Below, in pieces: positions 2,598 to 42,382 of a stretch of DNA of 50,548 nt (positions are counted from its first letter, which is position 1; each line of letters opens with the position of its first letter). The notes beneath the pieces are model-generated. The model was not told where the DNA came from, did no database searches, and saw only the letters and a list, made by a program, of their open reading frames with translations. The position numbers were made by a program, and so were the translations under genes. The stretch is from a virus. The DNA lies in the IMG/VR virus record IMGVR_UViG_3300027852_000049, positions 1 through 50,548 of that record, one strand, 5' to 3'.

Positions 2598-2611
2598 GAC
2601 GGACGTGTCAA
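2582..2611 (-). promoter_or_regulatory. candidate sigma70-type promoter for the leftward replication operon
   Basis: On the minus strand: TTGACA (2611-2606), 18-nt spacer, TACTAT (2587-2582). The ATG of the first leftward gene is at 2551. This element interleaves with the rightward promoter. Confidence 0.4.
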
Positions 2612-2631
2612 TAACGAAATGGAAATAATTT

Positions 2632-2793
2632 ATGAAAGGTCTATCAGAAATTCACGTAGTACCATCAAACGAAATATATGATCACGTAGCGTCTGATAAT
2701 TGTTTATGTGAACCTCGTAATGTAGGTAACATATGGTTCCATAAACCGATGGATATCGTGATGGAGGAATGCAATGACGCTATCCCTTCGTGA
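2632..2793 (+). CDS. small hypothetical protein (53 aa), below the ORF-track length cut-off
   Basis: Hand translation: MKGLSEIHVVPSNEIYDHVASDNCLCEPRNVGNIWFHKPMDIVMEECNDAIPS, stop TGA at 2791-2793. It overlaps the helicase start by 20 nt. The H..P...H....C-x-C-x-P pattern resembles small phage proteins I recall. The SD is weak. Confidence 0.4.
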   Translation: MKGLSEIHVVPSNEIYDHVASDNCLCEPRNVGNIWFHKPMDIVMEECNDAIPS

Positions 2794-24216: not shown

Positions 24217-24550
24217 CAGAGACGATGTTATCGCAATCAACGGTGAGTCTTATGATCACTCATTTAAGGGGTACACAGCCCTTGTGGATGGTCAACCGGC
24301 TGCTATAGCGGGTGTTATGTTTCATAATCCTTTAACTGCTTTCCTGAATATAGCAGAGGGTATTGATCCTAAGAAACATAAGCGGTCTGCTGTTATACTC
24401 ACTAGAAAATTGGTAAGTATTATCGAATCACTAGATGCACCAGTGTATGCTGTTGCTGACATACGTCACCCCACAGCATATAATCTGTTGCAACATGCGG
24501 GTTTTAAAAAACATAACGATGAGGTATTTATATGGATCCGGCAACATTAG
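24173..24550 (+). CDS. small GNAT-fold-like protein (putative acetyltransferase, 125 aa)
   Basis: I chose the ATG at 24173 (MTLKTLDHLKVRPANRDDVIAING...). VRPA..DD...I is a typical GNAT N-terminus, and the C-terminus PVYAVADIRHPTAYNLLQHAGFKK is GNAT-like. No clean Q/RxxGxG/A motif was seen. The ORF overlaps the nozzle gene 3' end by 44 nt. Confidence 0.3.
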   Translation: MTLKTLDHLKVRPANRDDVIAINGESYDHSFKGYTALVDGQPAAIAGVMFHNPLTAFLNIAEGIDPKKHKRSAVILTRKLVSIIESLDAPVYAVADIRHPTAYNLLQHAGFKKHNDEVFIWIRQH

Positions 24551-25005
24551 CAACAGTAGCTTCGGTAGGGTCAACAGCATTAGGTGCTTATGGTAGTTAC
24601 CAAGACGGTAGGGCTCAAAATGAGGCTGCTAAATTTGAGGCGAAACAACTGAAGCAGCAAGGTGAAGCAGCCTATGCTAAAGGAACTAAGGATGCTGCTG
24701 AAGAACGTCGTAAAGCATCCGTAATAATGGCCAATGCAAGAGCTGCTGGTGCAGCAAGTGGTGGTGCCACAGACGAGGGTATGTTGGAGACAACAGCTGA
24801 CATTGGTGCAGCAGGTGAATATAACTCCATGGCAGCAATGTTTGATGCTGAGTCTGAACAACGAGGTTATAACAACAAAGCTTCGGCAAGAAAATACGAA
24901 GGTGCTCAAGCAAAAGCTGCTGGTAAAACTAAAGCTTTGTCAACAATATTGGGTGGTGCATCAAGTGTTGCTTCAAAATGGAAAAAAACACCAAAAGAGA
25001 CTTAA
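24532..25005 (+). CDS. putative internal virion / ejection protein (gp14-like position)
   Basis: 157-aa Ala/Gly/Lys-rich ORF with a hydrophobic N-terminus (ATLATVASVGSTALGAYG). It lies directly after the nozzle region. Confidence 0.35.
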   Translation: MDPATLATVASVGSTALGAYGSYQDGRAQNEAAKFEAKQLKQQGEAAYAKGTKDAAEERRKASVIMANARAAGAASGGATDEGMLETTADIGAAGEYNSMAAMFDAESEQRGYNNKASARKYEGAQAKAAGKTKALSTILGGASSVASKWKKTPKET

Positions 25006-25008
25006 GTC

Positions 25009-26772: not shown

Positions 26773-28825
26773 TCAATATGTGGATGATGAGATTGAACTG
26801 GATGAGGTGTTACAGAAAGCTTCACAAGTTGACCCATTGCAGCATGCGTCAGACCTTGACCTTGCAGCCAATACAATGTTACCTGTCGATGTAGTTCAAC
26901 GAAACCGTGATCAAATTAAGAAAAGTGAACGTGCTGCTTACATCGACTCTGTGGATCTTGCTGCAAATAACCCTAAAACAGCAGCCTTCATAAGTAATTA
27001 TAACAATGCGGCTGTGTCGTTAGACCATGTTGAAGCATTACAGGGTATGGAGGATGACGTTAAGCGACATAATACAAATCTTCTTCTCAACACCGGTAAA
27101 AATTTCGCTAATACTGCTGTCAAACTGACAGGTGACTTTCTTCAATTTGCAGGACATACGTCAGATTCTTTTGAAGAGACAATGACTGAACTCACAGGGG
27201 TCAATCCCGGTATAGAATGGGGTGATGACGGTCTATCATTCAGTATGAAGTTAGACCCAAAACGTCAAGATGATCAGATGTACGGCAAGATGTTATCTGA
27301 ATATAAACCGTTTGATTATGTGGAGAACTTCAATTGGGATAATCTTAAAGAAGACCCAAGCATTATGAACCTTGCTGGTTATATCGTTGAGCAAGGAGGA
27401 GGTAGTCTTCCTCATATGATAGCAGCAATGTATACGGCACCCGCATATCTCATGTCACGTACAGAGGACATAGCAGAGAATCGTATGGTCAACATGGGTT
27501 CCGAAGAAAACCCTACGTGGAATGAGTTAGGTAAGTCCTTTGTACCAGCACTCGCAGTGGCTGTATCCGAACGTCTTGCTGGTAAAGTGGTACTCGGCAG
27601 AGGTGGTGTTACGGGGGTTGGATCAGGTGTTAAAGCCGTGGGTGGTGCAGCAGCTACAGAAGCGGGTACTGAGTTTATACAAGAAGGTATTGAGTATTTA
27701 GGTGAGACAGTAGGCACTAAAAAAGTTGTAGATTTTGGAGAGATGATAGACCGTCAATTTGCTGGTGCTGTCGCGGGTGGTGGTGTTGGTGGTGGTATCC
27801 GTGGCATAACAGCAACGCACGAAGCTATAGCTAACCGTAACGGTCAGCAAGTAGCTAATGTAATGTCATCGCTTGGTGAGCAAGATACGATTGATAGAAT
27901 GGTCGCTTATGCTCAAAGTGAAAATTTGGATCAGGTGGGACCATTACAACATAAAGAATTTCTTCAGTCTGTAGGGGAGGATATTGACATTATCGTGAGT
28001 GGTGATGCTGTGTCAGAACTTCAGACAGAATCTGAATATTTTGCAGATGCGAACGGTGAAGACGTACACATACCTTTAGATGTTTTTGTGAGTGAAATAG
28101 CACCTGATGTTGAGTTAATGGCTGAGTTACGACCGCACATTAAAACTTCAGGTAGCGGGTTGACGATGCAACAACTTGACTCTGGTGATTCACAACACAA
28201 GTCTGCTATCCGTAAACTGCTTGAGTCGGCTGAGAAAGAAGAGGCTATCAAGTCTGAAGCTGATGAAATTTACAATCAGGTGGTTCAGCAAATAGTAGAC
28301 ACTCGACGTCAAGGTCAGGCTACAGCCAGAATTAGTGCTCAAATTATACCTGCTTATGTTACGTCATATGTTGCACGAGCAAGGGATAGAGGGTTTGATA
28401 TATCAGTGAAGGACACCTTTGCTAAGATGGGCTTAAAGATCGTGGGACCACAAGAAGCTGCTGCACCTAATGAGATCTTAAATCAAGCACAGGAAGATGG
28501 GTACAAGGGTTCCAACGAACAACAAGCTGTTGAATGGAATGAGGCTGTAAGTAAAGGCATGCTGATGGATGAAGAGTCTCGTCGTATCCGTGCTGATAAC
28601 ATGAATGTTGAATTTGACCCAAACAGTGCTCACGATCCCGCCTTCAAGACAGGGCCTTCTTTCGATAGTGAACAAAAGTTTAGTGATTTAACGATATCTG
28701 AGTCTATAATTATTGAAGAGACTGGTGAAACTGTTCAGGTTGAAAGGAACGCTCAAGAAGTTTGGGATGAGACTCAATCGCGTAAATCAGAATTACAACA
28801 ATTGTTAGCTTGTATAAGGGGTTGA
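26759..28825 (+). CDS. putative internal virion / ejection protein with Gly-rich hydrophobic segments
   Basis: The ATG at 26759 overlaps the upstream 3' end. The glycine-zipper-like stretch GVGSGVKAVGGAAATEAGTEF...AGAVAGGGVGGGIRG suggests membrane insertion. The assignment otherwise rests on gene order. Confidence 0.3.
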   Translation: MLIDDQYVDDEIELDEVLQKASQVDPLQHASDLDLAANTMLPVDVVQRNRDQIKKSERAAYIDSVDLAANNPKTAAFISNYNNAAVSLDHVEALQGMEDDVKRHNTNLLLNTGKNFANTAVKLTGDFLQFAGHTSDSFEETMTELTGVNPGIEWGDDGLSFSMKLDPKRQDDQMYGKMLSEYKPFDYVENFNWDNLKEDPSIMNLAGYIVEQGGGSLPHMIAAMYTAPAYLMSRTEDIAENRMVNMGSEENPTWNELGKSFVPALAVAVSERLAGKVVLGRGGVTGVGSGVKAVGGAAATEAGTEFIQEGIEYLGETVGTKKVVDFGEMIDRQFAGAVAGGGVGGGIRGITATHEAIANRNGQQVANVMSSLGEQDTIDRMVAYAQSENLDQVGPLQHKEFLQSVGEDIDIIVSGDAVSELQTESEYFADANGEDVHIPLDVFVSEIAPDVELMAELRPHIKTSGSGLTMQQLDSGDSQHKSAIRKLLESAEKEEAIKSEADEIYNQVVQQIVDTRRQGQATARISAQIIPAYVTSYVARARDRGFDISVKDTFAKMGLKIVGPQEAAAPNEILNQAQEDGYKGSNEQQAVEWNEAVSKGMLMDEESRRIRADNMNVEFDPNSAHDPAFKTGPSFDSEQKFSDLTISESIIIEETGETVQVERNAQEVWDETQSRKSELQQLLACIRG

Positions 28826-28829
28826 TCGA

Positions 28830-29216
28830 ATGCCTAAAAAAATGACATCTGCTGAGCTTGCCGAACTACAAGGCAAAGGTGCTAAAGTTATTCGTGAACC
28901 ACGTCAGGTTGAAGTTCAAGGTATGGACTCAATAATGAAAGGGTTCAAGGAATTGGTTGACTCGATCAATGAAACAGCTAACTCTCGAAACAAAGAGATA
29001 CTTTGTGCAATCGATAAATTAACAGAGACTATCTGTAGCAAATCAATGGGTGGTACAGATGTATCTGTGGACTTAACACCCATTGCTGATATGATTACTC
29101 GCATGAATGAACCGGTGCAAAAAATTCCTTATGAGTTTAATGTTGACCGGGATCATAGAGGATTGTTATCTAAGATTACAGCAACACCTATTACTAAAAT
29201 CACTTTGGATTCATAA
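28830..29216 (+). CDS. hypothetical protein
   Basis: 128-aa ORF with an AAGGGG SD. Confidence 0.5.
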   Translation: MPKKMTSAELAELQGKGAKVIREPRQVEVQGMDSIMKGFKELVDSINETANSRNKEILCAIDKLTETICSKSMGGTDVSVDLTPIADMITRMNEPVQKIPYEFNVDRDHRGLLSKITATPITKITLDS

Positions 29217-29554
29217 TGCCTATCAAGATAGAAGTTGACGACAAACCAACATTGAGTTTTGACGAGGTTCATATGGTCAGTCAGCGGATCAAACAGAAAC
29301 AACGCGCTCATGTTGACGACAAAGTACTCTATCAGCTGGTTATCATTTACCAACTATACGCTGTAGATGACAATGGGTATATTCATTATTCACCTGACGG
29401 GCATAGGGTGAGTGTTACAGATTATGTAAGTTATGCAACAGCTCACGCAGCTGTTAATGAAATGACATGTGTAAATGCGCTTGCAGCAACTAAAGCGGCT
29501 ATTGCTTTCATAATCAACGATATTGGATCACACCATGTCACAGGGGTGAGCTGA
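29216..29554 (+). CDS. hypothetical protein
   Basis: 112-aa ORF with a TAATG overlap. Confidence 0.5.
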   Translation: MPIKIEVDDKPTLSFDEVHMVSQRIKQKQRAHVDDKVLYQLVIIYQLYAVDDNGYIHYSPDGHRVSVTDYVSYATAHAAVNEMTCVNALAATKAAIAFIINDIGSHHVTGVS

Positions 29555-31296
29555 TGACAATAACAGTAGGGTGGGTTGGTAACGGTAGACAATTTACAGC
29601 CAATATAGGATCAGATACCGTCACTGTTGTTAAGTATAGAGGTTCAGGTGGTACACCCAGTGCTGCTGCTGCGGATGGTAGTAAAGAGGGTGCAACCGCA
29701 TTAACAGTAACTGTCAACAAGACAGGTATTGCATTGTTTGTCACACTACCTTCTGCTTTAGATTTCACCGGTACAGAAGCTAATGAATACGTGTACGTGT
29801 GGGGTAAGTTTTTAGCTGCTTCAATTTTGGCAAACGTGGGTGATGTTGATGGGGGTTTTGGTGTATGTATGAGTTCAGGAACACCTACTGCTTCTAACTA
29901 TTCATTGTTCAGCCAATATGGTGCAGATCGTCCACCTAAAGATTGGGTTCGTATGGTGCAAGATCCTACGAAAACTAGGTCAGCAGGGGCAGGAACACTA
30001 ACCACTTCAAACATCACCCACATAGGTGTATTTGCCAACGTGGGTACAACTACTGCGAGGTTTGACAACTTACTATTGGATGCTTGTGATGTTGGCACAG
30101 GGCTGAAGGTTACAGGCACGTCAACGGTAGGTTTAATTGAAGAATTGTTAGCTGATGAAGCTACGAATGCGTACGGTGTTGTAGTACCACTGAATGACTC
30201 AGAATCTGCTACAGAGTTATCCGGTGAATTAATACTTGGTGATGACACTGGGGTCCTTGCTACAACCATTAATGATGAAGACTCAAAGGTGTTTGCGTCT
30301 GAACCGCTTTACTATAATTCAGGACTGGTTGCAGCAGTGCCTTTATCATTCACAAACATATCTTGTGTGGGCAACGGTACTGGTGATACTACCATTACTT
30401 TCGGGCAAGCAGTAGGAACATTGCAAGGGCGTAACGGAATATCAATAGTGGGCAACCCTACTTATGATTTTGGCTTCGACCGTGATGATGGAAATGTGGA
30501 AGCTGCTGATCTTTTCGGTTGTTCATTGGAAAATTTAACAGGCACTATCAACTTGGATGGTACTCACGACTTCAAAGGTAATACTGTATCAGGTTGCGGG
30601 GCGATGTCGATAGCGTCTGATGCTCATAGTATGACGCACGTTGCGTCAGGTCAGATGACATTGACAGGTGGTGCAAATTTAATTGATCCTTTGGTGATTA
30701 ATAACACGGGGTCAAGTAGTGTAGTAACTGATGATTTGGCTGAGGTTCTTGGTGACTTTACGTCGGACGGGTCCAACCATGCAATAGAGCTTACATCGGT
30801 GGGTGCCGGTACAATGTCATTTAACAATCAGTTGTCTGGTTATGAGACAGGTGTCTCTGGTTCACCGGTTACACCTACATCAACTGGTAATGAAGCAGTA
30901 TACGTCAACGTTGCATCAGGTACATTGACCATCAACGTTGCATCTGGTGCATCTACACCAAGTATTAGAAGTGCTGGTGCAACAGTGAATGTTGTTATAG
31001 CACCTGTTACATTGAACATCGATGTGATTGATGAGAACACTAAAGCTGTAATAACTGACGCAAGAGTACACGTTATTGCATCAGGTGGTGGTACACTTCC
31101 TGATGGGACGGTCATCATCGACGCTGCATTAGTCAATGGGAGTGGTAGAGCATCAGGTACAGCGGCTGGTGGACAAGAATTTGTAGGACTAGTAGTTGAT
31201 GCTGATACTCCTGCAATTCACGTAGCAAAGCCGATATCGGGTACAATACCGTCGGGTGGTTTAACATTACAGGTTAGTTTGGTTTTGGATGAATAA
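29554..31296 (+). CDS. virion structural protein, fibre-like (G/T/V/S-rich)
   Basis: 580-aa ORF with beta-rich low-charge composition and a TGATG overlap. Confidence 0.45.
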   Translation: MTITVGWVGNGRQFTANIGSDTVTVVKYRGSGGTPSAAAADGSKEGATALTVTVNKTGIALFVTLPSALDFTGTEANEYVYVWGKFLAASILANVGDVDGGFGVCMSSGTPTASNYSLFSQYGADRPPKDWVRMVQDPTKTRSAGAGTLTTSNITHIGVFANVGTTTARFDNLLLDACDVGTGLKVTGTSTVGLIEELLADEATNAYGVVVPLNDSESATELSGELILGDDTGVLATTINDEDSKVFASEPLYYNSGLVAAVPLSFTNISCVGNGTGDTTITFGQAVGTLQGRNGISIVGNPTYDFGFDRDDGNVEAADLFGCSLENLTGTINLDGTHDFKGNTVSGCGAMSIASDAHSMTHVASGQMTLTGGANLIDPLVINNTGSSSVVTDDLAEVLGDFTSDGSNHAIELTSVGAGTMSFNNQLSGYETGVSGSPVTPTSTGNEAVYVNVASGTLTINVASGASTPSIRSAGATVNVVIAPVTLNIDVIDENTKAVITDARVHVIASGGGTLPDGTVIIDAALVNGSGRASGTAAGGQEFVGLVVDADTPAIHVAKPISGTIPSGGLTLQVSLVLDE

Positions 31297-31310
31297 GAGG
31301 ATATTTTAAA

Positions 31311-32960
31311 ATGGCTTGGATAGATGATTACAGTGTGGATTTCGCAACAGGGAACGTGAGACATGTTTCGGGTACAACTCGTTACCCTATTATTGATATG
31401 CATAGAGCGTTGATTAGTTTAGCGGGTCAAGCGACAGCTAGTGGTGATGACTTAGGTGATATCACAGATCTGTTTGTACCGAGTAAACGTGCGTCTGATA
31501 CAGACATAACGTTGAACTCACCTATGAACATTGATGATACAGCTGCTCAATTTATGTACGGTGGTTCGATCACATACGGTGTCGCGGCCGCTGAAAAATA
31601 TTCAGGTCTTGCCATCGGTGGGAAGTATGCCGCTGATGCTTTACCGCAGGTGTTTCAGGATAATCTGAAACTTACAAATTACTGGGGTTTCAGTTACAGT
31701 CCTGATGCCGATCTTGGTTACGCTGTTAGATTGCTTGTTAAATCAAGAACAGGTGGTGTAGATATTGATGGTGGCAGAGTGAGGGTTCAATCACGAGGAT
31801 ACACCCACCCATTTCGTGAAGCTAAGACGGTGCTGGGTTCAAACGAATCTGTGGCTACACCGGGCGACGTGTCAATTCTTGACGTGTTCAACAGCGTAGC
31901 AATTGGTACTGTTTCTGGTTACACAGATATTGTTAACACAGAAGGTTATCAGAATATTGATTACGCCAATGGTAATGGTGCTCAACCGTACCACATGCAA
32001 TGGACCAAAGGCTCTCGTACTAAATCTGATGTTTACAGCCGTATTAAGTGGGAGACTCGTGATGGTACAGCCGAAACGCTTTACGGTCTGAACGGTGAGT
32101 TCTTCCGTGGTATTACCCATGAGATTGTTGTTGACACCCCAACTGGTACACTTGTAGATGGTGCTGGTATTACATGGGCCACTGGTACAGGACAGCTTTT
32201 AGCTATGGATAGTCCTACCGCAGCTACAAAGATTTGGATTCAACTATTAACAGGTGTTGCACCCACAGACAATGATGTACTGACAGCTGGTGGTACAGTT
32301 GCTGTCAACGTAAGTGTCACCGTCGTTGCGTTAGGTGCAGAGTCTGTTGCTGGTAACTACACCGGTTCATGGATCGGCAGCAAAGGTGCTGCACAAGCAG
32401 TTGCTGATGTCGGTAGTACTGACAGCTTCTTAGATTTGCTTGGTGTAACTCAAGCACCACCTAACCTACAATCAGCTGCTGTGGGTGGTATGGTGATTGG
32501 TGAAGACAGGGTTGCTTTAGGTAAGTCACTTGACGGGACTAGCATTAATAAATCTGAATACGCTGCTGCTGCTGGTAATGACTTGGGCGACGGCACCATT
32601 GTTGTCAGCACCACTATCAGTAATGTTCCAACGTCAGGTTGGGTGCGTATTGATAATGGGGCTGGTGGCGAAGACTCTTACAAATATTCATCATTTACAG
32701 GGTCCACATTCACATTAGACGGTATGACTTTAAGTCAGAATTATACAGCTGCTGTCAATGTATACCCTATGATTTTAGATTTAGTAGCGGCGGCTGCAAC
32801 GGAATCATCAGCATGGATTTATTCTACTGATACCATACTTGCAGGTCAGGTTGTGGATGACGGATCAGTTAACTCAACACCGACTATTCCGTTCCCATTG
32901 TCAGGAAGTTTCACCGAAACCGGTTTTAGCGTAAGTATCGTTCGTACACCGGATGCGTAA
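31311..32960 (+). CDS. virion structural protein
   Basis: 549-aa ORF with an AAGAGGA SD and G/T/A/V-rich composition. Confidence 0.45.
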   Translation: MAWIDDYSVDFATGNVRHVSGTTRYPIIDMHRALISLAGQATASGDDLGDITDLFVPSKRASDTDITLNSPMNIDDTAAQFMYGGSITYGVAAAEKYSGLAIGGKYAADALPQVFQDNLKLTNYWGFSYSPDADLGYAVRLLVKSRTGGVDIDGGRVRVQSRGYTHPFREAKTVLGSNESVATPGDVSILDVFNSVAIGTVSGYTDIVNTEGYQNIDYANGNGAQPYHMQWTKGSRTKSDVYSRIKWETRDGTAETLYGLNGEFFRGITHEIVVDTPTGTLVDGAGITWATGTGQLLAMDSPTAATKIWIQLLTGVAPTDNDVLTAGGTVAVNVSVTVVALGAESVAGNYTGSWIGSKGAAQAVADVGSTDSFLDLLGVTQAPPNLQSAAVGGMVIGEDRVALGKSLDGTSINKSEYAAAAGNDLGDGTIVVSTTISNVPTSGWVRIDNGAGGEDSYKYSSFTGSTFTLDGMTLSQNYTAAVNVYPMILDLVAAAATESSAWIYSTDTILAGQVVDDGSVNSTPTIPFPLSGSFTETGFSVSIVRTPDA

Positions 32961-32962
32961 GT

Positions 32963-34165
32963 ATGCCTTTAAGTGCTGACTGGGATGCTAAGATAATAAC
33001 GATACCAGTGTCAGAAATGACACTGGTTACTGGTACTCGTTATAAACTCACAGTCGCTTACTGGTGGGTACTTTTAAGGGAACTCAACGGTTCAGATCAA
33101 GGGGTGGTCGATACAGTAAACGCTCCTTTATTTCAGAATACATCACCCACTACTACTACCCCTCGAATTGTTGAAGTAATTAATGGTTGGCAAGTGGCTT
33201 ATGAAAGTGGCACTTATTCATTGGAGTTCACGGATGGTAACACTAACATCAGGGAAGTTGAAATAACTAACCCCGGTGTCAGTGTTGGTACTAACAATAC
33301 CTCCGCTTTAATTAACCCTACAGTGCTTGAAGCTGGTGTATTCGGTGGTAGAGTTGTTGTTGACATACTTTACGGTGTGGGAGGTACAGGTAAAACACCC
33401 ACTGGTGATATTATCGGAACGTTCCGTGCACCAAGTAATAATATAACCGACGCTATTAGTATCGCTGTTGGACAGGGTATTAAAGAATTATTTTTCAACG
33501 GTGACGCTGTTATTAATGAAGACTTGTCTGCTGAATACAAAATTGTGGGTGATTCACCATTTAATGTTTTAACAGCAAATCCTATCGCTGATCTCACAGG
33601 TTGTGCTATCGAGAACATGACTGTTTCAGGTGAGCTTGATGGTTTGAATATTCTTCAGGGATGTAGGATAAACAATATCACGGGGGTATCAGGCGCAGCA
33701 TACAATTGTGCGGTTAAGTCTGGTGTTGAGGTCACGGGGGACTTTGAGATGGTAGGGTGTTATTCTTCGACAGAAGGATCGTTGTTCGCTGAAATCACAC
33801 ATGTTAGTGGTAACATGATTGTACGTGATTACCACGGGTCATTAAAAATCAGCAATGTTGCAAACGGTACTCATTCGATAGGTATTGAGAACGGTGGTAG
33901 AGCTATTGTGGGTTCAGACTGTACAGGTGGTGAGGTTCATCTACGCGGATCACCGTTTGATATTGTTGATGATTCCCAAGTAGGTTGCATTGTATATGAT
34001 GAGACTGAAAGTTCTAAAGTTCGTGAGATGTATGCCCGGTTGAACTTAGATAACACTATTGATATGACACATCACGTTGATGGTCGAATAACTAGCTCTG
34101 ATAATTCAATTACGGTTAATGTAGCAGATGATGGCAATGGTGGTAAGATTACGAGCAGAACCTGA
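32963..34165 (+). CDS. virion structural protein (possible beta-helix)
   Basis: 400-aa ORF with repeated short G-x-V/I-N-type turns, for example INNITGVSGAAYNCAVKSGVEVTGDFEMVGC. Confidence 0.4.
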   Translation: MPLSADWDAKIITIPVSEMTLVTGTRYKLTVAYWWVLLRELNGSDQGVVDTVNAPLFQNTSPTTTTPRIVEVINGWQVAYESGTYSLEFTDGNTNIREVEITNPGVSVGTNNTSALINPTVLEAGVFGGRVVVDILYGVGGTGKTPTGDIIGTFRAPSNNITDAISIAVGQGIKELFFNGDAVINEDLSAEYKIVGDSPFNVLTANPIADLTGCAIENMTVSGELDGLNILQGCRINNITGVSGAAYNCAVKSGVEVTGDFEMVGCYSSTEGSLFAEITHVSGNMIVRDYHGSLKISNVANGTHSIGIENGGRAIVGSDCTGGEVHLRGSPFDIVDDSQVGCIVYDETESSKVREMYARLNLDNTIDMTHHVDGRITSSDNSITVNVADDGNGGKITSRT

Positions 34166-34371
34166 TGGGTGGCGTTGATACAATATCATTAGGGTTCCAA
34201 TGCGGTGATCCCGTCGGTGTAATATCATTAGGCTTCGTATGTGATGGGGTTAATGTAATTACACCGGTGAAGGCTCCGGGTAATCATGTCAGATTCTTCG
34301 ATCAAGCACGTGGTGAAGACGATGATATTTTAATGTTAGTAACTGCATTCATGGAGATGCTTGATGAGTAG
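34165..34371 (+). CDS. hypothetical small protein
   Basis: 68-aa ORF with a TGATG overlap upstream and an overlap with the giant gene start downstream. It contains an internal duplication, ISLGFQCGDPVGV / ISLGFVCDGVNV. Confidence 0.45.
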   Translation: MGGVDTISLGFQCGDPVGVISLGFVCDGVNVITPVKAPGNHVRFFDQARGEDDDILMLVTAFMEMLDE

Positions 34372-37300
34372 TATCAATTTCTGTTTAAAAAAATTCGGAG
34401 CTGTCACTGATGCTGATGCGGTAGCAGAGTTAGTTAAATCAGGCTTAACCGAAGAACAAGCTGTTAACCAACAGATAGCGAATATTGATTCTGAAATTGA
34501 CAGTATCGCACAGCAAGTGACCAATCAAGGTGGTAGAGTTGCCAATGACAGAGGTGCACCAATAACGGCTGATGAATTTCATGATAATCTGATAGAAGCA
34601 TTAACAGCAAGTCCTAACGGTGCGTCAGCATATGCTTACACGGCTGACGAATACGCGACAATGAAGTTAGTGTCTTATGACGACGGTCGTGCTGGATTCG
34701 CAATCAGACGAGATGGGATGATTGTATCGTTGTATAAGCATCCTGATTCACAATTGAAAGGTGTTGTCGATCTGATGATACAAGAAGCTGTAGAGCAGGG
34801 TGGTACGAGGCTTGAGGCATTTGAAGGTTTTTTAACAGAGTCCTATGGTAGAAATGGTTTTGTGGAAGCAGACCGTTATTCGTGGGATGAAAACATGGCA
34901 CCTGACAACTGGGATGCTGAAACAATGGGTAAGCCTGATGTGCTTGCCATGACATTAGATAAGGGGTTATATGATGAAGCAAGAGAAAATCAGAGTGCCA
35001 ATACAGAGGGATTACAAGACCTTGGCAGAGCACGAACAAGCGATGGAAGAGTACGACGAGAAAGTCGCCTTTCAGAAAAGCAGAATGAAGCGATCCGGGG
35101 TCGTGAAGCAGACGGCTCCCTCAAAGGGCTCCCTCGACAAGTAGGTGGTTTCAATGCGTCAGCATGGGCTAATGCGGCTTCGGTTGCTCAGGAGTATATG
35201 GCTAACGCTGGGTTGGAATATTTACCACCATCAAATTATGTAAAGGTTGATCCTGAAAGGTCTGCAAAAATAGCACAAGCTTTTGATGGGATGGACCATG
35301 CACCTAACGATCCTGAAGTTGCGGCTGCATATACTGCAATGATCAATGAAACGATCGAACAATATAGAGCTATCGTTAACAGTGGGTTGAAAGTTGAATT
35401 TATAGACGGTGCTGATCCGTACGAAAGCAGCCCTCGAATGATGACCGATGACGTACGTGACAATAATCACATGTACGTTTTCTCAACACGCGAAGGGTTT
35501 GGGTCAGATGATAATTTTGACCCTGTTGACAACCCTTTGTTACTAGAGACTGATTTCAAGATATCAGGTCAGGTAGCACTGGCTAACGATCTATTCAGGG
35601 TAGTTCATGATTACTTCGGTCATGTTAAAGAAGGTGTGGGATTCCGTGCTGATGGTGAAGAAAATACATGGCGTTCTCACATATCGATGTACAGCCCGTT
35701 GGCTAGAAAAGCTGTTACAACCGAAACACGCGGTCAAAATAGTTGGGTAAACTATGGGCCATACGGTGAAACTAACCGGTCAGCTACCGCTGAAAATACA
35801 GTCTTTGCAGATCAAAAAATTGGGATACTACCTGACTGGGTGATGGACGATTCACAAGATCTGCACCAACAAGGTACTCCTGATTTAGACATGTCTGATA
35901 AGGCAAGAATGCGACGTGCTAAAGATATGGGCTTTGACATCAATACTACATATTATCACGGGTCACCTGATAGCCGTGGTATATGGGATGAAGGTTTTGA
36001 TAAAAAAGGTTCCGTGGGAATAGGTGAGAATAGACCATTCTTTTTCAGTAGTGATAAGCGATTAGCATCTAGTTACGCTGATGACAATCGTGCCTTTGAT
36101 TATCAAAACGCGGTAGCTGAGACAATTCCCGTCAGACTTAAAATGACAAACCCTAAACGTATCCGATGGGACGGTGGGGGTTTCCGTGGAAAAAGGAACG
36201 GTAAAACTTATTCCATCGATGAGGAGATTAATATCGCTCGTGAACAAGGTCATGATGGTTTGATAGTTGATAACATTCGTGACGAGTATGCAATGACTGG
36301 TGCACCGGGTAATGTGACTGTTGTCTTTGAACCCTCTCAGATAAGGTCAGTCAACGCGGCTTTCGACCCGGCTCTTGAGGATAGTTCAAGGTTGCTTTAC
36401 CAATCACAAACACCTGTCAATGAGTTAGGTTTTTACAGTGGTGTCAATAAAGCTGTAATGGACATGAATTTTCCGCAGTGGAAAAAAGGTGGTAAGCAGT
36501 TAACAGAAGTTGAGTCAGCACGACTTGATGAGCTAAACCTGATCAGCTACAACATTAAGGATGATAACGACCCGTTAGCTATTGAGTTAGCAGCACTTGA
36601 GCAGAAGCAACGTGTATCAGAAGGTCTGGTGTCTGGTGCTGAAATTTTAGCAAAGCTGAAAAAGACAGGTGGTGTTAAAGAAGTTGAAGTGAAATGGCTT
36701 GGTCTTAATGAGTTCTTACAGTTGCGAGACAAATACACCCGTGATGAAGTAATGGAATTTGTACAAGAGAATGGTCTTGAAGTGGTGGAGACAGTTGCTG
36801 ATGAGTTAGAGAATGATCAAGAATTAACCACTCTTGAATGGGACAGCGGTACTATATGGGATGATCCTGAAGCGTGGGATCATGACATTGAATATTACTC
36901 TGATGAAGCTGAAGACAATGGGATATTGGACAGAGTGGTTGAAAGTCTTCTTGAAAGAAATTCAGATCGTTACAACGAAGAAAAAGAAGATGATGAGTCT
37001 GCTGTTGAATATTTTACAAGGCTTGATGATGAATACGGACTCACCGATGAGGTTCGTGACGAAGCTGAAAGTATGGCTGAAGAAGCGTACATGTATAACC
37101 CAGTGTATATATATTCAGCCCAAAACGATGGTGTTGATCTGTTTATTTTTGGTAACGATGAACAAGGGTATAGTATAAGGAAAGACGACTGGCGTAACTG
37201 GAACAACAGCGTTACAGACATTGAAATTTATTCATTGAATGAGGCTGAAATACAGGCTGAAAACTATGCTCGTGAGGAAGAATTAATAGGCTATGCCGAT

Positions 37301-40300
37301 GATCAAGATGGAAATGTAGCTAAATGGTCCGACTACAATATTGAAGACACACCTTGGGATAACTACAGAGAGATTAAGCTTCAACTTCCTCAGATGGATA
37401 GTTTCTACCATAACGTGCATTTTGACGAAGAGAATATTGTGGCATTCTTGAGGGTCACAGATCGTGATCTTTATGTCACACCAAGAAGACAGTTGACCAA
37501 AGAGGAACGGGCGCACGTCGAACATCCTGATAACGCTGAGATACAGAACGAGATCGAGGCCGTTGAGAAGTTATTACCCGCTGAATTTGACCGCATACAG
37601 CAGTTACTTAAGGATAATATCAAAGACGAAGATGCACATAAGTTTGAAGAGAAGCTAAACGATTACACATCGTGGGAAGGTATTGCAAGCGCGATAGGTC
37701 TTGATGAAAGTTCTGTCAGTGGTTACAGGATGATGAAAAAAAGCATCACCAACCTTAATGATCTTAAGTTCAAGAACAACACCCCTCTGAACTCAACAGA
37801 AGCACGGTATGGACGGGCTGGTATAGAGAAAGCTAACACGTACTTTATCGATGAGTATCAATCTGATTGGGCTTCTGAAGGGCGTGAGCAAGGGTTCAAG
37901 ACTGGTGAGCGTGATGTCATTGAAATGGAGGAAGAGGTATTAGCTCTATCAGGAGCTTTAAACAATGAAATATTAAGTAAGTATAGTGAGTTTGTTGAAC
38001 CATATCTTGCTGACATAGAAGAAGAGCTGGGTCTATCTGACCCTGAAAGTGAATTTAATAAATTTGTGTTTTCAAATAAATTTCAATCGTTAATCAAAAG
38101 TAATTTCCAACACATCAAAGAAGGCTATGAGGGTGCGATATTAGATAAGATTATTGATATCGCTAAAGACATCGAGGCGGCTGATAAAGAGTGGTTGTAT
38201 GGGTTAAGAGATAGAATTAAGCAGATCGAGACACTTGATAAAGCAGTACAAGGTGAGCAAAACGGTGTATCGGACATGCCGTTAAAAGGTGATTTGTGGA
38301 TACCCTTTGGTCTTAAGCGAGCAATCACTGATGCTATTGAAAATGGTTACGAAGCAATTGCATGGCCTAATAATGAAGCATTACAACAGCGGTGGTCACG
38401 TAGTTATAATTACGAAGCTCAGTATGACAAAAAAATGCCTTCTGTGATGAAGAAGTTGATGGGTGAAACACCTGTACAGCTCACATTTAAGGGTGGTGAA
38501 ATTACAGATCATAGAGATAATTACACAATTAACAAAGTGCCTTTCGGGAAGAACGGTCATAAGTTTGAGGTGCGTACATCAAGCACTGCTGGTGAAGCTG
38601 CTAAGACCGCACCATTAGTTGTGGATACGAAAGCCGATGCTGAAAAGCACATAAATAGTTTGTTGAGAGGTCGTGATAAAATACAGAGCGGTTACTGGAC
38701 TATACCTATCACTGACAAGTTGAAAGCTGATGTGCAGAAGTCAGGGTTCCCTTTGTACCAAGAATACCGTGGGTCGTTCAACCCTGAAACAATGGTGATG
38801 AAGCTAGGGGAAAGTTCTGACCTATCTACATTCTTACATGAATCAGCTCACTTTTTCTTAGAGATGGAAAAGCAATTTGTAAGAGACTACGGTAACACTG
38901 ATGATCACGAGACGTTATTGAAGTGGTTGAATGTTTCGTCATTGGAAAATATCACTGTTGAACACCATGAAAAATTTGCTGAGACTTTTGAAGCGTACTT
39001 ACGGACAGGCAAGTCACCTTCTGCGAAACTACGTAACGTGTTCACGGAATTTGCTGACTGGTTAAGTCGTATCTATAAGACTCTTATTGACTCACGATTG
39101 ACAAGATCAAAGCTCGACCCTGAAATCACAGGTGTGATGGATCGGTTGTTAGCCACCAAAGCTGAGATAGAATCAGAACTTTCAAGCCCACAATATGACG
39201 AACTGTTTAGGTCTAAAGAGCAAGCTGGTATGACTGATAAACAATGGGAAAAATATCAGCAGGATATCAGTAAGCGTAAGACCGTTGCCCAAGGTGACAT
39301 CAACGATAAAGTGCTTAAAGAATACCGTAAGCGTTTGAGTAAAGAATGGCGTAAGGAAGAAAGTGAGATCCGTGATGCTGAAATTGAAAGGTTGGATCAG
39401 ACACCACCTTACCGTCTGATTAAAGCCCTCAAGACTTACAAGATGAACAAGGCGGAGATTCACGATATTGTGGATACAACCACCTTGACTGATGCTCAAC
39501 GTCGCAAACTTAATAGTTTTGTTAGTGACAATGAAGCAGCCATGAACCCTGTTGAAGTAGCAGAAGAGTTTGAATTTGAAAATGCTCAAGATATGGTGGC
39601 CACCATCTTAGGGTTAACACCGGTGAAAGAAGCAGCTAAGGTCATTGCTGAGCAAAAAATGAAGGACAAGTACGGTGACTTTATTAACGATGGATCACTT
39701 GAAGCTGAGGTTCGTCAAGCCGTACGTAATGACCAACAAGCTAAAATTTTAATGCACGAGATTAAAGCTCTCGACAAGAAGTCTAAAATTAATAGGACAT
39801 ATCTGAAAGATGAAGCTGCTCGAATGATTGCCTCTATGAAGTTTGGTGAAATTCGTCCTAATAAATATTATCGTAATGAGATTAAAGCTGCACAAGATGC
39901 TGTTACTGCTAAAAGTGCTGATGAGAAACTTCATGCTAAGACACGACAACTAGCTAATCATTATTTATACAAGGAAGCACTTGCTACTAAAGAGAAGATA
40001 GAAAAGCACCGTAAGTACATTAAGAACGTTCAGTCATTCGATTATGGAAGTACAGTAGAGGCTAGTTATGTGGCCAATATGAAAATGCTATCAGAGTCAT
40101 ATGACATGAGGAAAAATCCTGATCAACCACGTAACGTTGAGTCGTTGATCAATTGGATGATTACACAAACTGAAGATATCAATAACTTCGTGAGTCTTGA
40201 GATCCTTGATGTAAATTTGGCAACCATGCTGTCGCGTCGTGATAATGGTGAGACTGTGAATTACACGTTGCCTACGTGGGAAGAAATGACTGCTGCTGAA

Positions 40301-42382
40301 ATTAAATCTGTACATGACATGCTGAAACACATGAGATTTGTGGGTGGCCAGTTGTCAGATACAGCTAAGGTCAGAATGGGTGAGGAACGTCAATCCGCTG
40401 CTGATTCTGTTAAAGCTAACGCACGGGAAACAATCGTTGCTAAGCATGTCGAGAAGAAGACAGACCGTATCAAGGATGGGGTGAAACGATTCCTTCATTC
40501 ACATAGGCGTCTTGCTGGGTTGTTCTTCAGACTGGACGGGTTTGAGTACGACGGAGAGCTTGCTAAACAATATGACAAGGTAGTTGATGCGGGTAACGTT
40601 GAATTAGAGCTTACAGGCGTTATGACGAAGGATATGGATAATGCTTTCAAGAAGGTGTACAAGAAGATCAGTCGTCGGAATGAAGCTACTGTCACGAAGT
40701 CTGACGGTGAAAATTGGACATTAACTCATCGAGCAAGGTTTGTGCTTGCGTTGAACTGGGGTAATGACGGCAACCGTGAAGCAGTACTTGAAGGTTTAAA
40801 TAATAAATTTGAGGATGAATATACTGCTGAAGATGTCATGGCGATGATGTCAACCATGGGTAAGGACGAGTTGAATGCTGTCAATGCTGTATGGATAGCT
40901 AAAGAACAATTGTGGCCTAAGATGTCAGCGGTCAGTGTTCGCATGACAGGGGTGACACCTGCTAAAGTGGTACCTTCATCGTTCAAGGTCAATGGTGTTC
41001 ACATGGTTGGTGGGCACTATAAGCTTCATTACATGGAGGACCCTAATGATGCTGGCCGTAAAGATCTTGAGGTGGATAAGAATATTCAGAAGCAAAGCAT
41101 CAGTATGTCACAGCTAGGCACTATGATTGCACGTAAAGGATCTGGTGGTCGTCAAGTAGATTTAGAACTTCAGCATCTATTCACTGACATTGGAGAGGAC
41201 ATCCACTACATTGCTTATGCTGAGATGGCTAAAGATTTATCACGAGTATTAAAAGGGTCTAATAATCCTCTTGTCGCAGCCATACAGCGTCATCATGGTG
41301 TGCCGTTCTACAAGAACTTAATTGATACAGTAGATGGTATTATTAACCCTCCTGATGCATCTAAAGGGGTATTTTGGCCGGGGTTAAAGTGGGTGAGGGG
41401 TAACCTCACATATGCTTATCTGGCAGGCAGTGTCCGTAACGTGGTGCAACAACCAATAGCATTGACAAACGTTCTGTCACAACTTGGTGAAATCCACACA
41501 ATTAAGGGGATCATGAATTTCTATGCGAACCCTGTTGATAACTGGACGAAGGTTCGTGAAGAGTCAATGTTTATGGCACATCGTACGGAATTAGTTAACC
41601 GTGAGGCACGTGAGCAACTGGCCAAGATGGATTCGATACATCCTACATGGGGTGCTATCAAACAGGGTGCTTTTGCACCTCAAACATTCATGGATTCATT
41701 AATAGCATTCCCTGCATGGATGGGTGCTAGAGATAAGTACATGGCTGATCATCCTGACGCTGACGTAAAGAAAGCTATAAAATATGCTGACGAGATGGTG
41801 GCTAAAACTGTTGGATCGGGAATGACTAAAGATATCGGTAACATCTTGAATGCTACCGAGGCCGAGAAACAAATAACATTCATGGGTACTTTCTTTAACG
41901 TCACGTACAACCTCCATGTGGAAAATATGGAATTGTTAAAGTCTGGTAAAATTAACGGGTTTGAATACGCGAAGAGAGTAGGTTGGATGGCTATTGCACC
42001 GGCACTATTATCTGTGTGGTTATTGTCGGACTTACCTGATGACCCTGATGAAGTACCTATGCACTTGATGAAAGAAGTTGCTTTTTATAATTTCTCATCA
42101 ATATTTTTAATACGGGACTTAATGAGTGTGATTGATGGTTTCACCCCGTCACTACCGGGTCTTCAGTTCGGTACAGGTGCAGTGAGAGTTGCTAATGAAG
42201 TGACAGATGTAGCCACTGGCGATGAAGAGCTTGACATGAACACAGTGGCCAGTATCATCAGAGGCTTACAACCATTAGCACCATTGCCGGGATCAGGTCA
42301 GGTCGCTAGAACACTTGAGGGGATATCAGATGAAAATCAAACCACTTGGGGATCACTTGTTGAAGGTAAGGACAGGAACTAA
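34364..42382 (+). CDS. giant polyvalent virion protein (2,672 aa): GNAT-like + HDxxGH module + ART-like + HExxH zincin-like + C-terminal hydrophobic region
   Basis: A single uninterrupted ORF. The GNAT-like module (~34610-34960) reads GRAGFAIRRDGMIVSLYKHP...GGTRLEAFEGFLTESYGRNGF...KPDVLAMTL. FRVVHDYFGHVKEGVGFRADGEENTWRSH lies at ~35594-35680. The ART-like module (~35940-36370) reads YYHGSP...RPFFFSSDKRLASSYAD...GHDGLIVDNIRDEY...VVFEPSQIRSVNAAFDP. HESAH lies at 38837-38851, followed by HHEKFAETFEAYLRTGKSPS. Hydrophobic segments lie at ~41980-42130. The first track codon (34361) is TTG; the ATG is at 34364. Confidence 0.7.
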   Translation: MSSINFCLKKFGAVTDADAVAELVKSGLTEEQAVNQQIANIDSEIDSIAQQVTNQGGRVANDRGAPITADEFHDNLIEALTASPNGASAYAYTADEYATMKLVSYDDGRAGFAIRRDGMIVSLYKHPDSQLKGVVDLMIQEAVEQGGTRLEAFEGFLTESYGRNGFVEADRYSWDENMAPDNWDAETMGKPDVLAMTLDKGLYDEARENQSANTEGLQDLGRARTSDGRVRRESRLSEKQNEAIRGREADGSLKGLPRQVGGFNASAWANAASVAQEYMANAGLEYLPPSNYVKVDPERSAKIAQAFDGMDHAPNDPEVAAAYTAMINETIEQYRAIVNSGLKVEFIDGADPYESSPRMMTDDVRDNNHMYVFSTREGFGSDDNFDPVDNPLLLETDFKISGQVALANDLFRVVHDYFGHVKEGVGFRADGEENTWRSHISMYSPLARKAVTTETRGQNSWVNYGPYGETNRSATAENTVFADQKIGILPDWVMDDSQDLHQQGTPDLDMSDKARMRRAKDMGFDINTTYYHGSPDSRGIWDEGFDKKGSVGIGENRPFFFSSDKRLASSYADDNRAFDYQNAVAETIPVRLKMTNPKRIRWDGGGFRGKRNGKTYSIDEEINIAREQGHDGLIVDNIRDEYAMTGAPGNVTVVFEPSQIRSVNAAFDPALEDSSRLLYQSQTPVNELGFYSGVNKAVMDMNFPQWKKGGKQLTEVESARLDELNLISYNIKDDNDPLAIELAALEQKQRVSEGLVSGAEILAKLKKTGGVKEVEVKWLGLNEFLQLRDKYTRDEVMEFVQENGLEVVETVADELENDQELTTLEWDSGTIWDDPEAWDHDIEYYSDEAEDNGILDRVVESLLERNSDRYNEEKEDDESAVEYFTRLDDEYGLTDEVRDEAESMAEEAYMYNPVYIYSAQNDGVDLFIFGNDEQGYSIRKDDWRNWNNSVTDIEIYSLNEAEIQAENYAREEELIGYADDQDGNVAKWSDYNIEDTPWDNYREIKLQLPQMDSFYHNVHFDEENIVAFLRVTDRDLYVTPRRQLTKEERAHVEHPDNAEIQNEIEAVEKLLPAEFDRIQQLLKDNIKDEDAHKFEEKLNDYTSWEGIASAIGLDESSVSGYRMMKKSITNLNDLKFKNNTPLNSTEARYGRAGIEKANTYFIDEYQSDWASEGREQGFKTGERDVIEMEEEVLALSGALNNEILSKYSEFVEPYLADIEEELGLSDPESEFNKFVFSNKFQSLIKSNFQHIKEGYEGAILDKIIDIAKDIEAADKEWLYGLRDRIKQIETLDKAVQGEQNGVSDMPLKGDLWIPFGLKRAITDAIENGYEAIAWPNNEALQQRWSRSYNYEAQYDKKMPSVMKKLMGETPVQLTFKGGEITDHRDNYTINKVPFGKNGHKFEVRTSSTAGEAAKTAPLVVDTKADAEKHINSLLRGRDKIQSGYWTIPITDKLKADVQKSGFPLYQEYRGSFNPETMVMKLGESSDLSTFLHESAHFFLEMEKQFVRDYGNTDDHETLLKWLNVSSLENITVEHHEKFAETFEAYLRTGKSPSAKLRNVFTEFADWLSRIYKTLIDSRLTRSKLDPEITGVMDRLLATKAEIESELSSPQYDELFRSKEQAGMTDKQWEKYQQDISKRKTVAQGDINDKVLKEYRKRLSKEWRKEESEIRDAEIERLDQTPPYRLIKALKTYKMNKAEIHDIVDTTTLTDAQRRKLNSFVSDNEAAMNPVEVAEEFEFENAQDMVATILGLTPVKEAAKVIAEQKMKDKYGDFINDGSLEAEVRQAVRNDQQAKILMHEIKALDKKSKINRTYLKDEAARMIASMKFGEIRPNKYYRNEIKAAQDAVTAKSADEKLHAKTRQLANHYLYKEALATKEKIEKHRKYIKNVQSFDYGSTVEASYVANMKMLSESYDMRKNPDQPRNVESLINWMITQTEDINNFVSLEILDVNLATMLSRRDNGETVNYTLPTWEEMTAAEIKSVHDMLKHMRFVGGQLSDTAKVRMGEERQSAADSVKANARETIVAKHVEKKTDRIKDGVKRFLHSHRRLAGLFFRLDGFEYDGELAKQYDKVVDAGNVELELTGVMTKDMDNAFKKVYKKISRRNEATVTKSDGENWTLTHRARFVLALNWGNDGNREAVLEGLNNKFEDEYTAEDVMAMMSTMGKDELNAVNAVWIAKEQLWPKMSAVSVRMTGVTPAKVVPSSFKVNGVHMVGGHYKLHYMEDPNDAGRKDLEVDKNIQKQSISMSQLGTMIARKGSGGRQVDLELQHLFTDIGEDIHYIAYAEMAKDLSRVLKGSNNPLVAAIQRHHGVPFYKNLIDTVDGIINPPDASKGVFWPGLKWVRGNLTYAYLAGSVRNVVQQPIALTNVLSQLGEIHTIKGIMNFYANPVDNWTKVREESMFMAHRTELVNREAREQLAKMDSIHPTWGAIKQGAFAPQTFMDSLIAFPAWMGARDKYMADHPDADVKKAIKYADEMVAKTVGSGMTKDIGNILNATEAEKQITFMGTFFNVTYNLHVENMELLKSGKINGFEYAKRVGWMAIAPALLSVWLLSDLPDDPDEVPMHLMKEVAFYNFSSIFLIRDLMSVIDGFTPSLPGLQFGTGAVRVANEVTDVATGDEELDMNTVASIIRGLQPLAPLPGSGQVARTLEGISDENQTTWGSLVEGKDRN

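Follow-up and report, generated by a model that had tools for sequence, protein, structure and literature searches.

A giant podophage gene encodes a probable polyvalent internal virion protein with a conserved chassis and exchangeable cargo

The IMG/VR virus record IMGVR_UViG_3300027852_000049 (50,548 nucleotides (nt), analyzed over its full length and called the window in the following) contains an 8-kb gene whose product of 2,672 amino acids (aa) combines several enzyme-like segments. This locus raises the question of what kind of viral protein is built in such a manner and where it would act. The initial annotation of this DNA, made without database searches, had regarded the gene product as an ejected multi-effector with ADP-ribosyltransferase (ART), zincin and acetyltransferase-like modules. 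It is likely, in our view, that the phage is a podophage with a tail-tube-B/ejectosome mechanism and that the gene (positions 34364..42382, + strand) codes for an internal virion (ejection) protein of the polyvalent kind. The polyvalent multi-module reading was upheld by computation, namely by matches of the individual modules, by the position of the gene in the internal virion protein (IVP) slot of the genome, by homology to protein Bbp10 of phage BPP-1, and by a pronounced avoidance of cysteine.

The window looks like a complete podophage contig of 50.5 kb. According to the open reading frame (ORF) listing and the translation, the giant gene is an uninterrupted ORF of 2,672 codons plus stop, which occupies 8,019 of the 50,548 nt (15.9%), in line with the earlier estimate of about 16% of the genome for a single ORF at 34364–42382. 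A ribosome-binding site (GGAG at 34353–34356) is located 7 nt 5′ of the ATG at 34364, and the ORF as called mechanically begins with an in-frame TTG at 34361. A protein identical to the product is already on record (P0001). All motifs quoted in the initial annotation were found at the expected places in the translation, including HESAH at nt 38837–38851; the ART histidine, numbered H533 there, is H532 when counted from the ATG at 34364.

A database search retrieved 1,859 homologs of the giant protein at E ≤ 1e-3, and all counts given below in relation to 119 sequences refer to the best 119 of these homologs. The latter are 1,774–3,974 aa long (nearly all >2,000 aa) and are encoded on contigs of up to ~93 kb, many of which measure 40–55 kb. 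Mapping the 119 homologs onto the query revealed two universal blocks, aa ~250–500 (module M2) and aa ~1460–2640 (C-block). The remaining regions are facultative: aa 1–245, which contain module M1, are present in ~40/119 homologs, aa 505–680 (ART) in ~20/119, and aa 680–1440 (middle region) in ~25–40/119. The order of the modules varies among the homologs. The closest relative, P0002, shares 41% identity with the query and is colinear with it except for the absence of aa 505–672; because exactly this segment is missing, the ART module can be regarded as a cassette. Iyer et al. (2017) have reported such module shuffling and cassette behavior for the polyvalent proteins of phages.

Pfam recognizes only one domain, ART-PolyVal, in the 2,672 aa of the query. 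The precomputed Pfam domains of the homologs comprise LPD22 (in most of them), ART-PolyVal, GGDEF, GNAT, LPD23, DUF3293, DUF7178, Zeta_toxin and RadC. The giant protein unites mutually unrelated modules in one polypeptide, i.e., ART-PolyVal, an HExxH zincin-type core, a GNAT-like module and M2. Hallmark domains of polyvalent proteins occur in the query (PF18760), in a separately encoded N-terminal block of the family (LPD22; see below) and in homologs (LPD23, GGDEF and Zeta_toxin). The giant protein is a further member of a large, already described polyvalent family. As judged from the sequence comparisons, its predicted chassis is a zincin-type HExxH domain followed by a ~1,050-residue alpha-helical body with a terminal hydrophobic helix. 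The chassis of relatives additionally contains a detachable N-terminal LPD22 block. The predicted variable cargo is placed before the chassis and consists of the GNAT-like module, M2, the ART with a His-Tyr-Asp (H-Y-D) triad, and the ~750-aa middle module.

Part of the evidence for an ejection protein is found in the C-terminal half. The initial annotation had proposed that the stretch at ~39000–41900 may hold undescribed domains, but this region is a conserved alpha-helical ejection-protein body (aa 1572–2640; 39077..42283, + strand) and no reserve of effector domains. Residues 1469–2587 match phrog_9880 with an E-value of 8e-176, and residues 1469–2672 match Bbp10 of BPP-1 (tblastn, 7e-68). 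In addition, tblastn matched the C-block to large proteins encoded in the core slot of other podophages, namely Xanthomonas CP2-like phages and phages of Caulobacter, Vibrio, Cobetia and Pseudomonas. An AlphaFold2 (AF2) model of aa 1401–2600 consists almost entirely of helices (pLDDT 74.5), and a Foldseek search of this model against the PDB recovered only non-significant matches, which were helical membrane transporters. Close to the C-terminus, Kyte-Doolittle analysis located two hydrophobic helices at aa 2535–2558 and 2572–2590 (41966..42133, + strand), which correspond to the hydrophobic segments noticed earlier. Their mean hydropathy is 1.59 and 1.39 in the query and 1.73 and 0.93 on average in the family; the first helix is kept hydrophobic across the family, the second less so. 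Hardies et al. (2016) listed Bbp10 as IVP-D (the class of T7 gp16) in the epsilon15 group, and pointed out that internal virion proteins host cytoplasm-destined domains such as the virion RNA polymerase of phage N4. Like the proteins of this class, the giant protein is large and extensively alpha-helical, and its gene lies between tail tube B and the tail fiber genes.

The amino acid composition points in the same direction. The query contains a single cysteine in 2,672 residues (0.04%), and the cysteine content of the 119 homologs has a median of 0 and does not exceed 0.11%, compared with 0.82% in the other ORFs of the window. The ejected N4 proteins gp50, gp51 and gp52 (L007) have no cysteine in 4,294 residues, whereas the N4 DNA polymerase and primase contain 1.1–1.4%; the respective value for epsilon15 gp15–gp17 is 0.11–0.24%. 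Cysteine avoidance would fit an unfolded passage through the tail channel and the oxidizing periplasm. Being a simple signature, near-total avoidance of this residue could help recognize ejected proteins in metagenomic phages.

Scans with PHROG and Pfam profiles revealed a podophage layout of the window. The structural genes start with the large terminase (14009), the portal (15481) and the major capsid protein (18731), and continue with tail tube A (20381), tail tube B (21571; 881 aa) and ORFs of 152, 157 and 587 aa. These are followed by a gene for a 699-aa LPD22 protein (26726–28825), five ORFs, the giant ORF, and two tailspike genes (starting at 42386 and 44522). The giant gene lies between tail tube B and the tailspikes, in the slot of the internal virion proteins, and has the same orientation as the structural genes. 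The order of tube B, internal virion proteins and fiber is that of T7 and epsilon15 and was also seen in locus L005, and such a gene order was used by Hardies and co-workers for recognizing ejectosome-type podoviruses. The genomic surroundings also agree with the earlier description: the upstream genes are rich in Gly, Thr and Val and beta-helix- or fiber-like, and two pectate-lyase-type tailspikes are encoded downstream. A megablast search with the region from 30 to 46 kb against phages gave no match, and a close cultured relative was not found. Tail tube B shares 23–30% identity with Pelagibacter and BcepC6B-type phages, and the major capsid protein has two distant matches only.

One piece of cargo is the ART module (aa 530–664, within a cassette of ~aa 505–672; 35951..36355, + strand). 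It matches Pfam family PF18760 (ART-PolyVal) over profile positions 9–134 of 140 with an E-value of 5.9e-10 and 40.5 bits, which is above the gathering threshold of 31.2. Its motifs are YYHGSP (aa 530), FFFSSD (aa 559), ASSYA (aa 568), GHDGLIV (aa 629), DEYA (aa 640) and QIRSVNAAF (aa 659). According to Iyer et al. (2017), the ART-PolyVal clade is characterized by a His on strand 1, a Tyr on strand 2 and an Asp on strand 5. The query keeps all three residues as H532, Y571 and D640. In an alignment of 60 family copies, H532 is conserved in 53 of 55 sequences, position 571 is Tyr in 47 and Phe in 8 of 56, and position 640 is Asp in 33 and Glu in 5 of 45. No sequence relative of the module was found in the PDB. 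The ART-like module proposed in the initial annotation is thus firmly established as a member of ART-PolyVal with an intact triad.

The second enzyme-like feature is the zincin-like metallopeptidase core M4 (aa 1451–1571; 38714..39076, + strand). Its motif LHESAHFF at aa 1491 contains H1492-E-x-x-H1496, and 39 residues further on the sequence HEKFAETFEAYL at aa 1535 provides the pattern H1535-E1536-x-F-A-x-x-F-E1543-x-Y...G...P. Residues H1492, E1493 and H1496 are conserved in 88–90 of the 90 covering sequences and in 57/57 sequences of a second alignment, and H1535, E1536 and E1543 are invariant or nearly so in the family. In the AF2 model of aa 1401–2600, HExxH resides on a helix (1487–1509) and the HEKFAE/Glu motif on another one (1532–1546). 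The HExxH helix is preceded by a helix at 1451–1459 and by a two-strand hairpin only (1470–1473 and 1478–1481; pLDDT 65–80), where a zincin would have a three-stranded beta sheet. A profile of M4 (aa 1446–1625) aligned in register with anthrax lethal factor, so that HExxH coincided with H686-E-x-x-H690 and E1536 with the zinc ligand E735, at marginal E-values of 0.05–0.1. Spartan was next (E 1.9), and Pfam searches with single M4 members gave the DUF6782 metallopeptidase (0.0057) and Peptidase_M3 (0.087). The HExxH domain of N4-type polyvalent proteins has likewise been linked to lethal factor (Iyer et al. 2017), and aa 700–1000 of Bbp10 were placed in the CLCA_X zincin family (Lenart 2013). 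Taken together, M4 is likely a zincin, and the zincin-like motif that had been noticed initially is family-invariant together with a downstream Glu. The alignments place this predicted zincin in the invariant chassis and not among the variable effectors.

The best-conserved part of the giant protein is M2 (aa 246–500; 35099..35863, + strand), a predicted alpha/beta domain. It is present in 117–118 of the 119 homologs at 50–65% identity, and its mean column identity among 25 diverse members is 59%, versus ~25% identity in the helical body. Invariant residues are H415 and H420 in the motif HDYFGH (aa 415), G431-E432, H439, and E454-T-R-G-Q-N-S460; D416 and E433 occur in ≥90% of the sequences. 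The AF2 model of M2 has an alpha/beta architecture (pLDDT 89.6, pTM 0.88), in which the conserved polar residues are located on three consecutive helices after a small sheet. These residues form a candidate metal site, with H415 and H420 on one modeled helix, E432, E433 and H439 on the next, and E454, R456, Q458 and N459 on the third.

An exhaustive search with the M2 profile detected 5,272 representative proteins (one per 50%-identity cluster), of which 3,373 had E ≤ 1e-30; most of them are 1,000–3,900 aa long. Viral models in BFVD matched M2 with E-values down to 8e-27 and a TM-score of 0.92, and one of the matched proteins carries a MuF head-morphogenesis domain as a fusion. Among phage isolates, M2 was found as a ~195-aa stretch of hypothetical proteins in 199 mycobacteriophage records of ~155 kb, in gp205 of Rhodococcus phage E3 (annotated as “structural protein”), in a 2,803-aa protein of a Synechococcus phage, and in “lysins” of Nostoc, Microcystis and Octadecabacter phages. 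The context is always a phage virion or a polyvalent protein. M2 had no Pfam match, no sequence match in the PDB and no significant Foldseek match in the PDB.

The “HDxxGH” module of the initial annotation is consequently a real and highly conserved domain, but not an HD hydrolase: no Pfam HD family matched at E ≤ 1, and the 79 non-significant Foldseek matches in the PDB did not include any HD domain. TPH2 and phenylalanine hydroxylase (PAH) topped the Foldseek ranks (E 0.35, TM 0.15), and PAH has an iron-site motif HELLGH. A relationship to aromatic amino-acid hydroxylases was rejected, as hhalign against human PAH aligned only 10 residues (Prob 0.2%), and the resemblance is possibly, at most, a convergent 2-His motif. 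The reading of M2 as a second zincin, according to the HExxxH variant described by Iyer et al., is not supported either. An hhalign comparison of M2 and M4 detected no relation, and a Foldseek match to selecase was weak (TM 0.35, E 2.7). We also discarded the conserved motif “DGSLxGLP” as a repeated protease cleavage site. Each protein has a single copy of this motif, invariably located ~165 aa ahead of the HD motif, and the motif therefore belongs to M2. M2 is a widespread domain of virion context and probably a metal-dependent enzyme.

The N-terminal module M1 (aa 81–200; 34604..34963, + strand) matches phrog_2563 and, at the profile level, the GNAT protein YjaB. In the homologs that possess M1, M2 always lies directly downstream. 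With the M1 family profile (A1), YjaB (2kcw) was the best PDB match at an E-value of only 0.12. After trimming to the core and adding seven stand-alone relatives (P0240–P0246), the resulting profile A7 matched YjaB at 0.0022 over the beta4-alpha3-beta5-alpha4 core, and a second GNAT, 1u6m, at 0.3. A word-index search with M1 yielded only 7 matches, and Pfam GNAT models matched neither the query nor 18 family members. One BFVD homolog that contains M2 is named “NAT_SF domain containing protein”. The GNAT motif A (Q/R-x-x-G-x-G/A) is canonical in the stand-alone relatives (RGIG, KGVG or DGAG) and non-canonical in the query, which has SQLKGV within PDSQLKGVV. We conclude that M1 has a probable GNAT fold. 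For the GNAT-like module of the initial annotation, the fold is thus retained as probable on the basis of a borderline match. In the epsilon15 record, the internal virion protein gp13 (L008, 11122–11586) is annotated as GNAT-like by HHpred. Acetyltransferase folds may be a recurrent theme among ejected proteins.

Between the ART and M4 lies the middle region (aa 684–1440; 36413..38683, + strand), which may comprise one or more modules. Its invariant polar motifs are HFDEEN..TDR, E.QSDW..GR and PF..W..KR..A.E.GY. The conserved blocks are separated by an acidic linker (aa 801–900; nt 36761–37063) with 38% Asp+Glu and 6% Lys+Arg; judging from this composition, the stretch could be a flexible acidic or DNA-mimicking linker. 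The middle module also exists elsewhere as a stand-alone protein of 730–1,125 aa. One such protein (P0125) aligns to aa 734–1373 at E 3e-29 and is encoded behind tube B, at the internal-virion-protein position, in a different podophage. A word-index search with the middle region gave 10 matches only. No Pfam or PHROG family matched, and comparison of the profile with PDB sequences produced nothing meaningful. The stretch at ~36400–38800, which may hold undescribed domains according to the initial annotation, contains a conserved ~750-aa module without a match in these databases. It is tempting to speculate, although we regard this as rather doubtful, that M2 represents a new metal-dependent enzyme fold doing the one activity which every member of the ejected family needs, and that the middle module is a second undescribed enzyme. 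In this scenario, the activity of M2 could be a new way of breaching the envelope or of modifying host nucleotides or proteins.

The initial annotation of this protein covered the giant gene. The LPD22 block of the family is a separate gene at 26726..28825 (+ strand), and the functional unit therefore extends beyond the giant gene. The 699-aa product of this gene is the N-block of the giant-protein family and contains LPD22 (Pfam, 2e-11) and a Gly-rich hydrophobic stretch; it also matches the N-terminus of phrog_9880. It aligns with the first ~620 residues of the giant proteins at 31–41% identity over ~600 aa in 50/119 relatives. In the phage that encodes P0008, tube B is followed by proteins of 126, 148 and 531 aa and then by a 2,850-aa giant protein that starts with the N-block. 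In the window, by comparison, tube B is followed by ORFs of 152, 157 and 587 aa, then by the N-block gene, and after a 5.3-kb cassette by the giant ORF. This cassette consists of five genes (128, 112, 580, 549 and 400 aa; 28830..34165, + strand) and is missing at the syntenic position in locus L005. Inspection of the sequences indicated that its three large genes are beta-helix- or fiber-like, and none of the cassette genes had a PHROG or Pfam match. A weak PHROG match linked the N-block to the N4 virion RNA polymerase family (E 1.4e-5), while BLAST against the N-terminal domain of N4 gp50 was negative and an NCBIfam search with the giant protein and the N-block gave no matches.

A third arrangement was found in the phage encoding P0002, where a separate 925-aa GGDEF protein is encoded upstream of the giant gene. 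On this contig (L004), the GGDEF gene (1054–3831) lies just upstream, and DnaJ and PAPS-reductase genes are present too. These accessory genes, along with an ART-PolyVal ORF, are listed in the paper on Pseudoalteromonas phage vB_PunP_Y3 (“Poorviridae”).

If the giant protein is a polyvalent ejection protein, infection may proceed as follows. A few copies would be packed in the capsid core above the portal, and at infection the protein would be threaded unfolded through the tail and an envelope conduit. Owing to its near-absence of cysteine, the oxidizing periplasm would be unable to cross-link it. The protein would refold at or in the cytoplasm, and its hydrophobic C-terminal helix would be situated at the inner membrane, as would the LPD22 protein. 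The ART module would next modify host targets using NAD+, and the GNAT-like and M2 modules would act on other host molecules. Cleavage of the polyprotein into active pieces, or its regulation, may be the role of the zincin.

Several observations weigh against this interpretation. Packaging and ejection are inferred for the giant protein and its close relatives, and the isolates nearest to it share only ~25% identity. The link to T7 gp16/epsilon15 gp17 was not reproduced by hhalign against epsilon15 gp17 (Prob 0.4%), and hhalign of M4 against the C-terminal domain (CTD) of N4 gp50 was negative as well (Prob 0.7%); the IVP-D assignment hence rests on Bbp10, synteny and the literature. The lethal factor match of M4 is marginal, no zincin was among the Foldseek matches of the 1,200-aa C-block model, and the module borders showed no recurring cleavage motif. 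With its non-canonical motif A, M1 may be inactive. Finally, ejection systems usually carry a peptidoglycan hydrolase, and none was detected among the candidate core proteins of the window.

Some of these points could be accommodated if the product were a structural ejectosome or core protein, whose enzyme-like modules are degenerate relics, spacers or packing mass and non-catalytic in the host. Such a protein would explain that the C-terminal 45% is a helical body without an enzymatic signature, that motif A of the GNAT-like module is non-canonical in the query, and that Pfam recognizes a single domain in 2,672 aa. However, degenerate modules would hardly be expected to keep the ART triad H532/Y571/D640 intact and the zincin residues invariant, and M2, which is conserved better than any other part, has invariant polar residues in a pattern typical of an active site. 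We thus consider a purely structural role unlikely.

Similarly improbable is a virion-associated lysin that cuts peptidoglycan at entry by means of the HExxH domain or M2. GenBank annotates homologs of Octadecabacter, Nostoc, Microcystis and Caulobacter phages as lysin or lysis protein, and several homologs carry the label “lysin/lysis protein with beta/gamma crystallin motif”, but the “crystallin” label goes back solely to the annotation of Bbp10. The authors of the phi24B study suggested that the gp47 metallopeptidase degrades peptidoglycan, and no other wall hydrolase was recognized among the candidate core proteins of the window. Yet searches of Pfam, NCBIfam, PHROGs and the PDB gave no lysozyme, transglycosylase, amidase or LAS/M15/M23 peptidase match, the best zincin match, lethal factor, is a protein endopeptidase, and an ART requires NAD+ and targets of the cytoplasm. 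A non-packaged cytoplasmic anti-defense or host-takeover polyprotein, encoded by chance in the late structural operon, would agree with the indirect nature of the case for packaging and with the classification of the vB_PunP_Y3 ART gene as an auxiliary metabolic gene by its authors, but is very unlikely given the co-orientation of the gene with the structural genes in the gp16/IVP-D slot, the limited usefulness of a cytoplasmic effector expressed so late, the cysteine avoidance as in ejected proteins, and the presence of a similar-sized polyvalent protein in phi24B virions according to proteomics.

An ejected polyvalent protein accordingly remains our preferred reading. Such proteins are the first phage molecules that meet the host, and they probably carry counter-defense and takeover enzymes. 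Categorically, the giant protein is nothing new, and its value lies in a clean map of the family, with an invariant chassis and swappable cargo. M2 is very widespread, confidently folded and without known relatives, has an apparent metal site, and offers a tangible target for biochemical work. This result could be useful to others, as could the cysteine signature and the finding that the ~750-aa middle module is conserved and also occurs in stand-alone form. Overall, the locus is of moderate interest, mainly for the biochemistry of M2 and the middle module and for the question whether the zincin processes the polyprotein.

Other genes of the window complete the picture of this phage. Of the replication genes, helicase and primase are encoded on the + strand, and DNA polymerase and exonuclease on the − strand. 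The 152-, 157- and 587-aa ORFs (24092–26772, + strand), which directly follow tail tube B, are devoid of cysteine. The 587-aa ORF is charged and looks helical from its sequence, and has no PHROG or Pfam match. The products of these three ORFs are candidate ejection proteins of small and medium size, in analogy to T7 gp14 and gp15. The tailspikes (42386–44446 and 44522–46357, + strand) share one ~80-aa stretch with 43% identity and otherwise differ. This stretch is the start of the pectate-lyase domain and corresponds to aa 270–340 in one and aa 20–100 in the other protein. Differing tailspike sequences suggest two receptor specificities. An apparent 198-nt gap 5′ of the giant gene is occupied by a 68-codon ORF (34165–34372, + strand). 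Its ATG and the stop codon of the 400-aa gene overlap, and so do its own stop codon and the start of the giant ORF. This small ORF contains a 13-aa internal duplication (“ISLGF”), with a 35-nt direct repeat at 34173–34207 and 34212–34246 (74% identity).

Among the known systems close to the giant protein are the polyvalent proteins described by Iyer et al. (2017), of the LPD22/ART-PolyVal/MPTase type. Common features are the giant single polypeptide, an H-Y-D ART (PF18760), a zincin-type HExxH motif, an acetyltransferase-like module, LPD22 in the family, shuffled modules, and the location of the gene in a phage structural region. On the other hand, no Pfam model, LPD families included, matched M2 or the ~750-aa middle module, and LPD22 is here encoded separately, 5.5 kb upstream. 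Bbp10 of BPP-1 and its relatives share ~24–26% identity with the giant protein over aa 1469–2672, including HExxH, and are encoded in the same slot before the tail fibers. Relatives of the Bbp10 class include the Xanthomonas CP2 / PhiXacm4-11 gp35 proteins as well as proteins of Caulobacter, Vibrio and Pseudomonas AF-like phages; PhiXacm4-11 gp35 (2,300 aa) likewise lacks a structural match in the PDB according to the authors of its study. In most of the listed isolates, tblastn matched the C-terminal half only; M2 was detected in the respective proteins of Octadecabacter, Nostoc and Microcystis phages. BPP-1 gave no match to the ART, the GNAT-like or the middle module of the giant protein.

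The virion RNA polymerase gp50 of phage N4 offers a parallel in architecture. It combines a membrane-associated N-terminal block, enzyme cargo, an HExxH domain and a ~110-kDa alpha-helical CTD without structural homologs, and it is also cysteine-free. Packaging and ejection of gp50 are proven. The cargo of gp50 is an RNA polymerase and not an ART, GNAT or M2 module, and as there is no significant sequence similarity, we do not claim membership in the gp50 group. Another giant podophage polyvalent protein is gp47 of the Stx phage phi24B (2,811 aa), which is abundant in virions according to proteomics but invisible in cryo-EM maps, and was proposed by its authors to be a capsid-packed ejection protein. 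Its LPD domains (LPD5, LPD1 and LPD38) form another set, and its metallopeptidase (MuF-C) is of another family. T4 Alt, finally, is a stand-alone myovirus enzyme of another ART clade and is not fused to an ejection-protein body. It is an ADP-ribosyltransferase as well, is packaged in the head, injected with the DNA, and modifies host proteins (summarized in Iyer et al. 2017).

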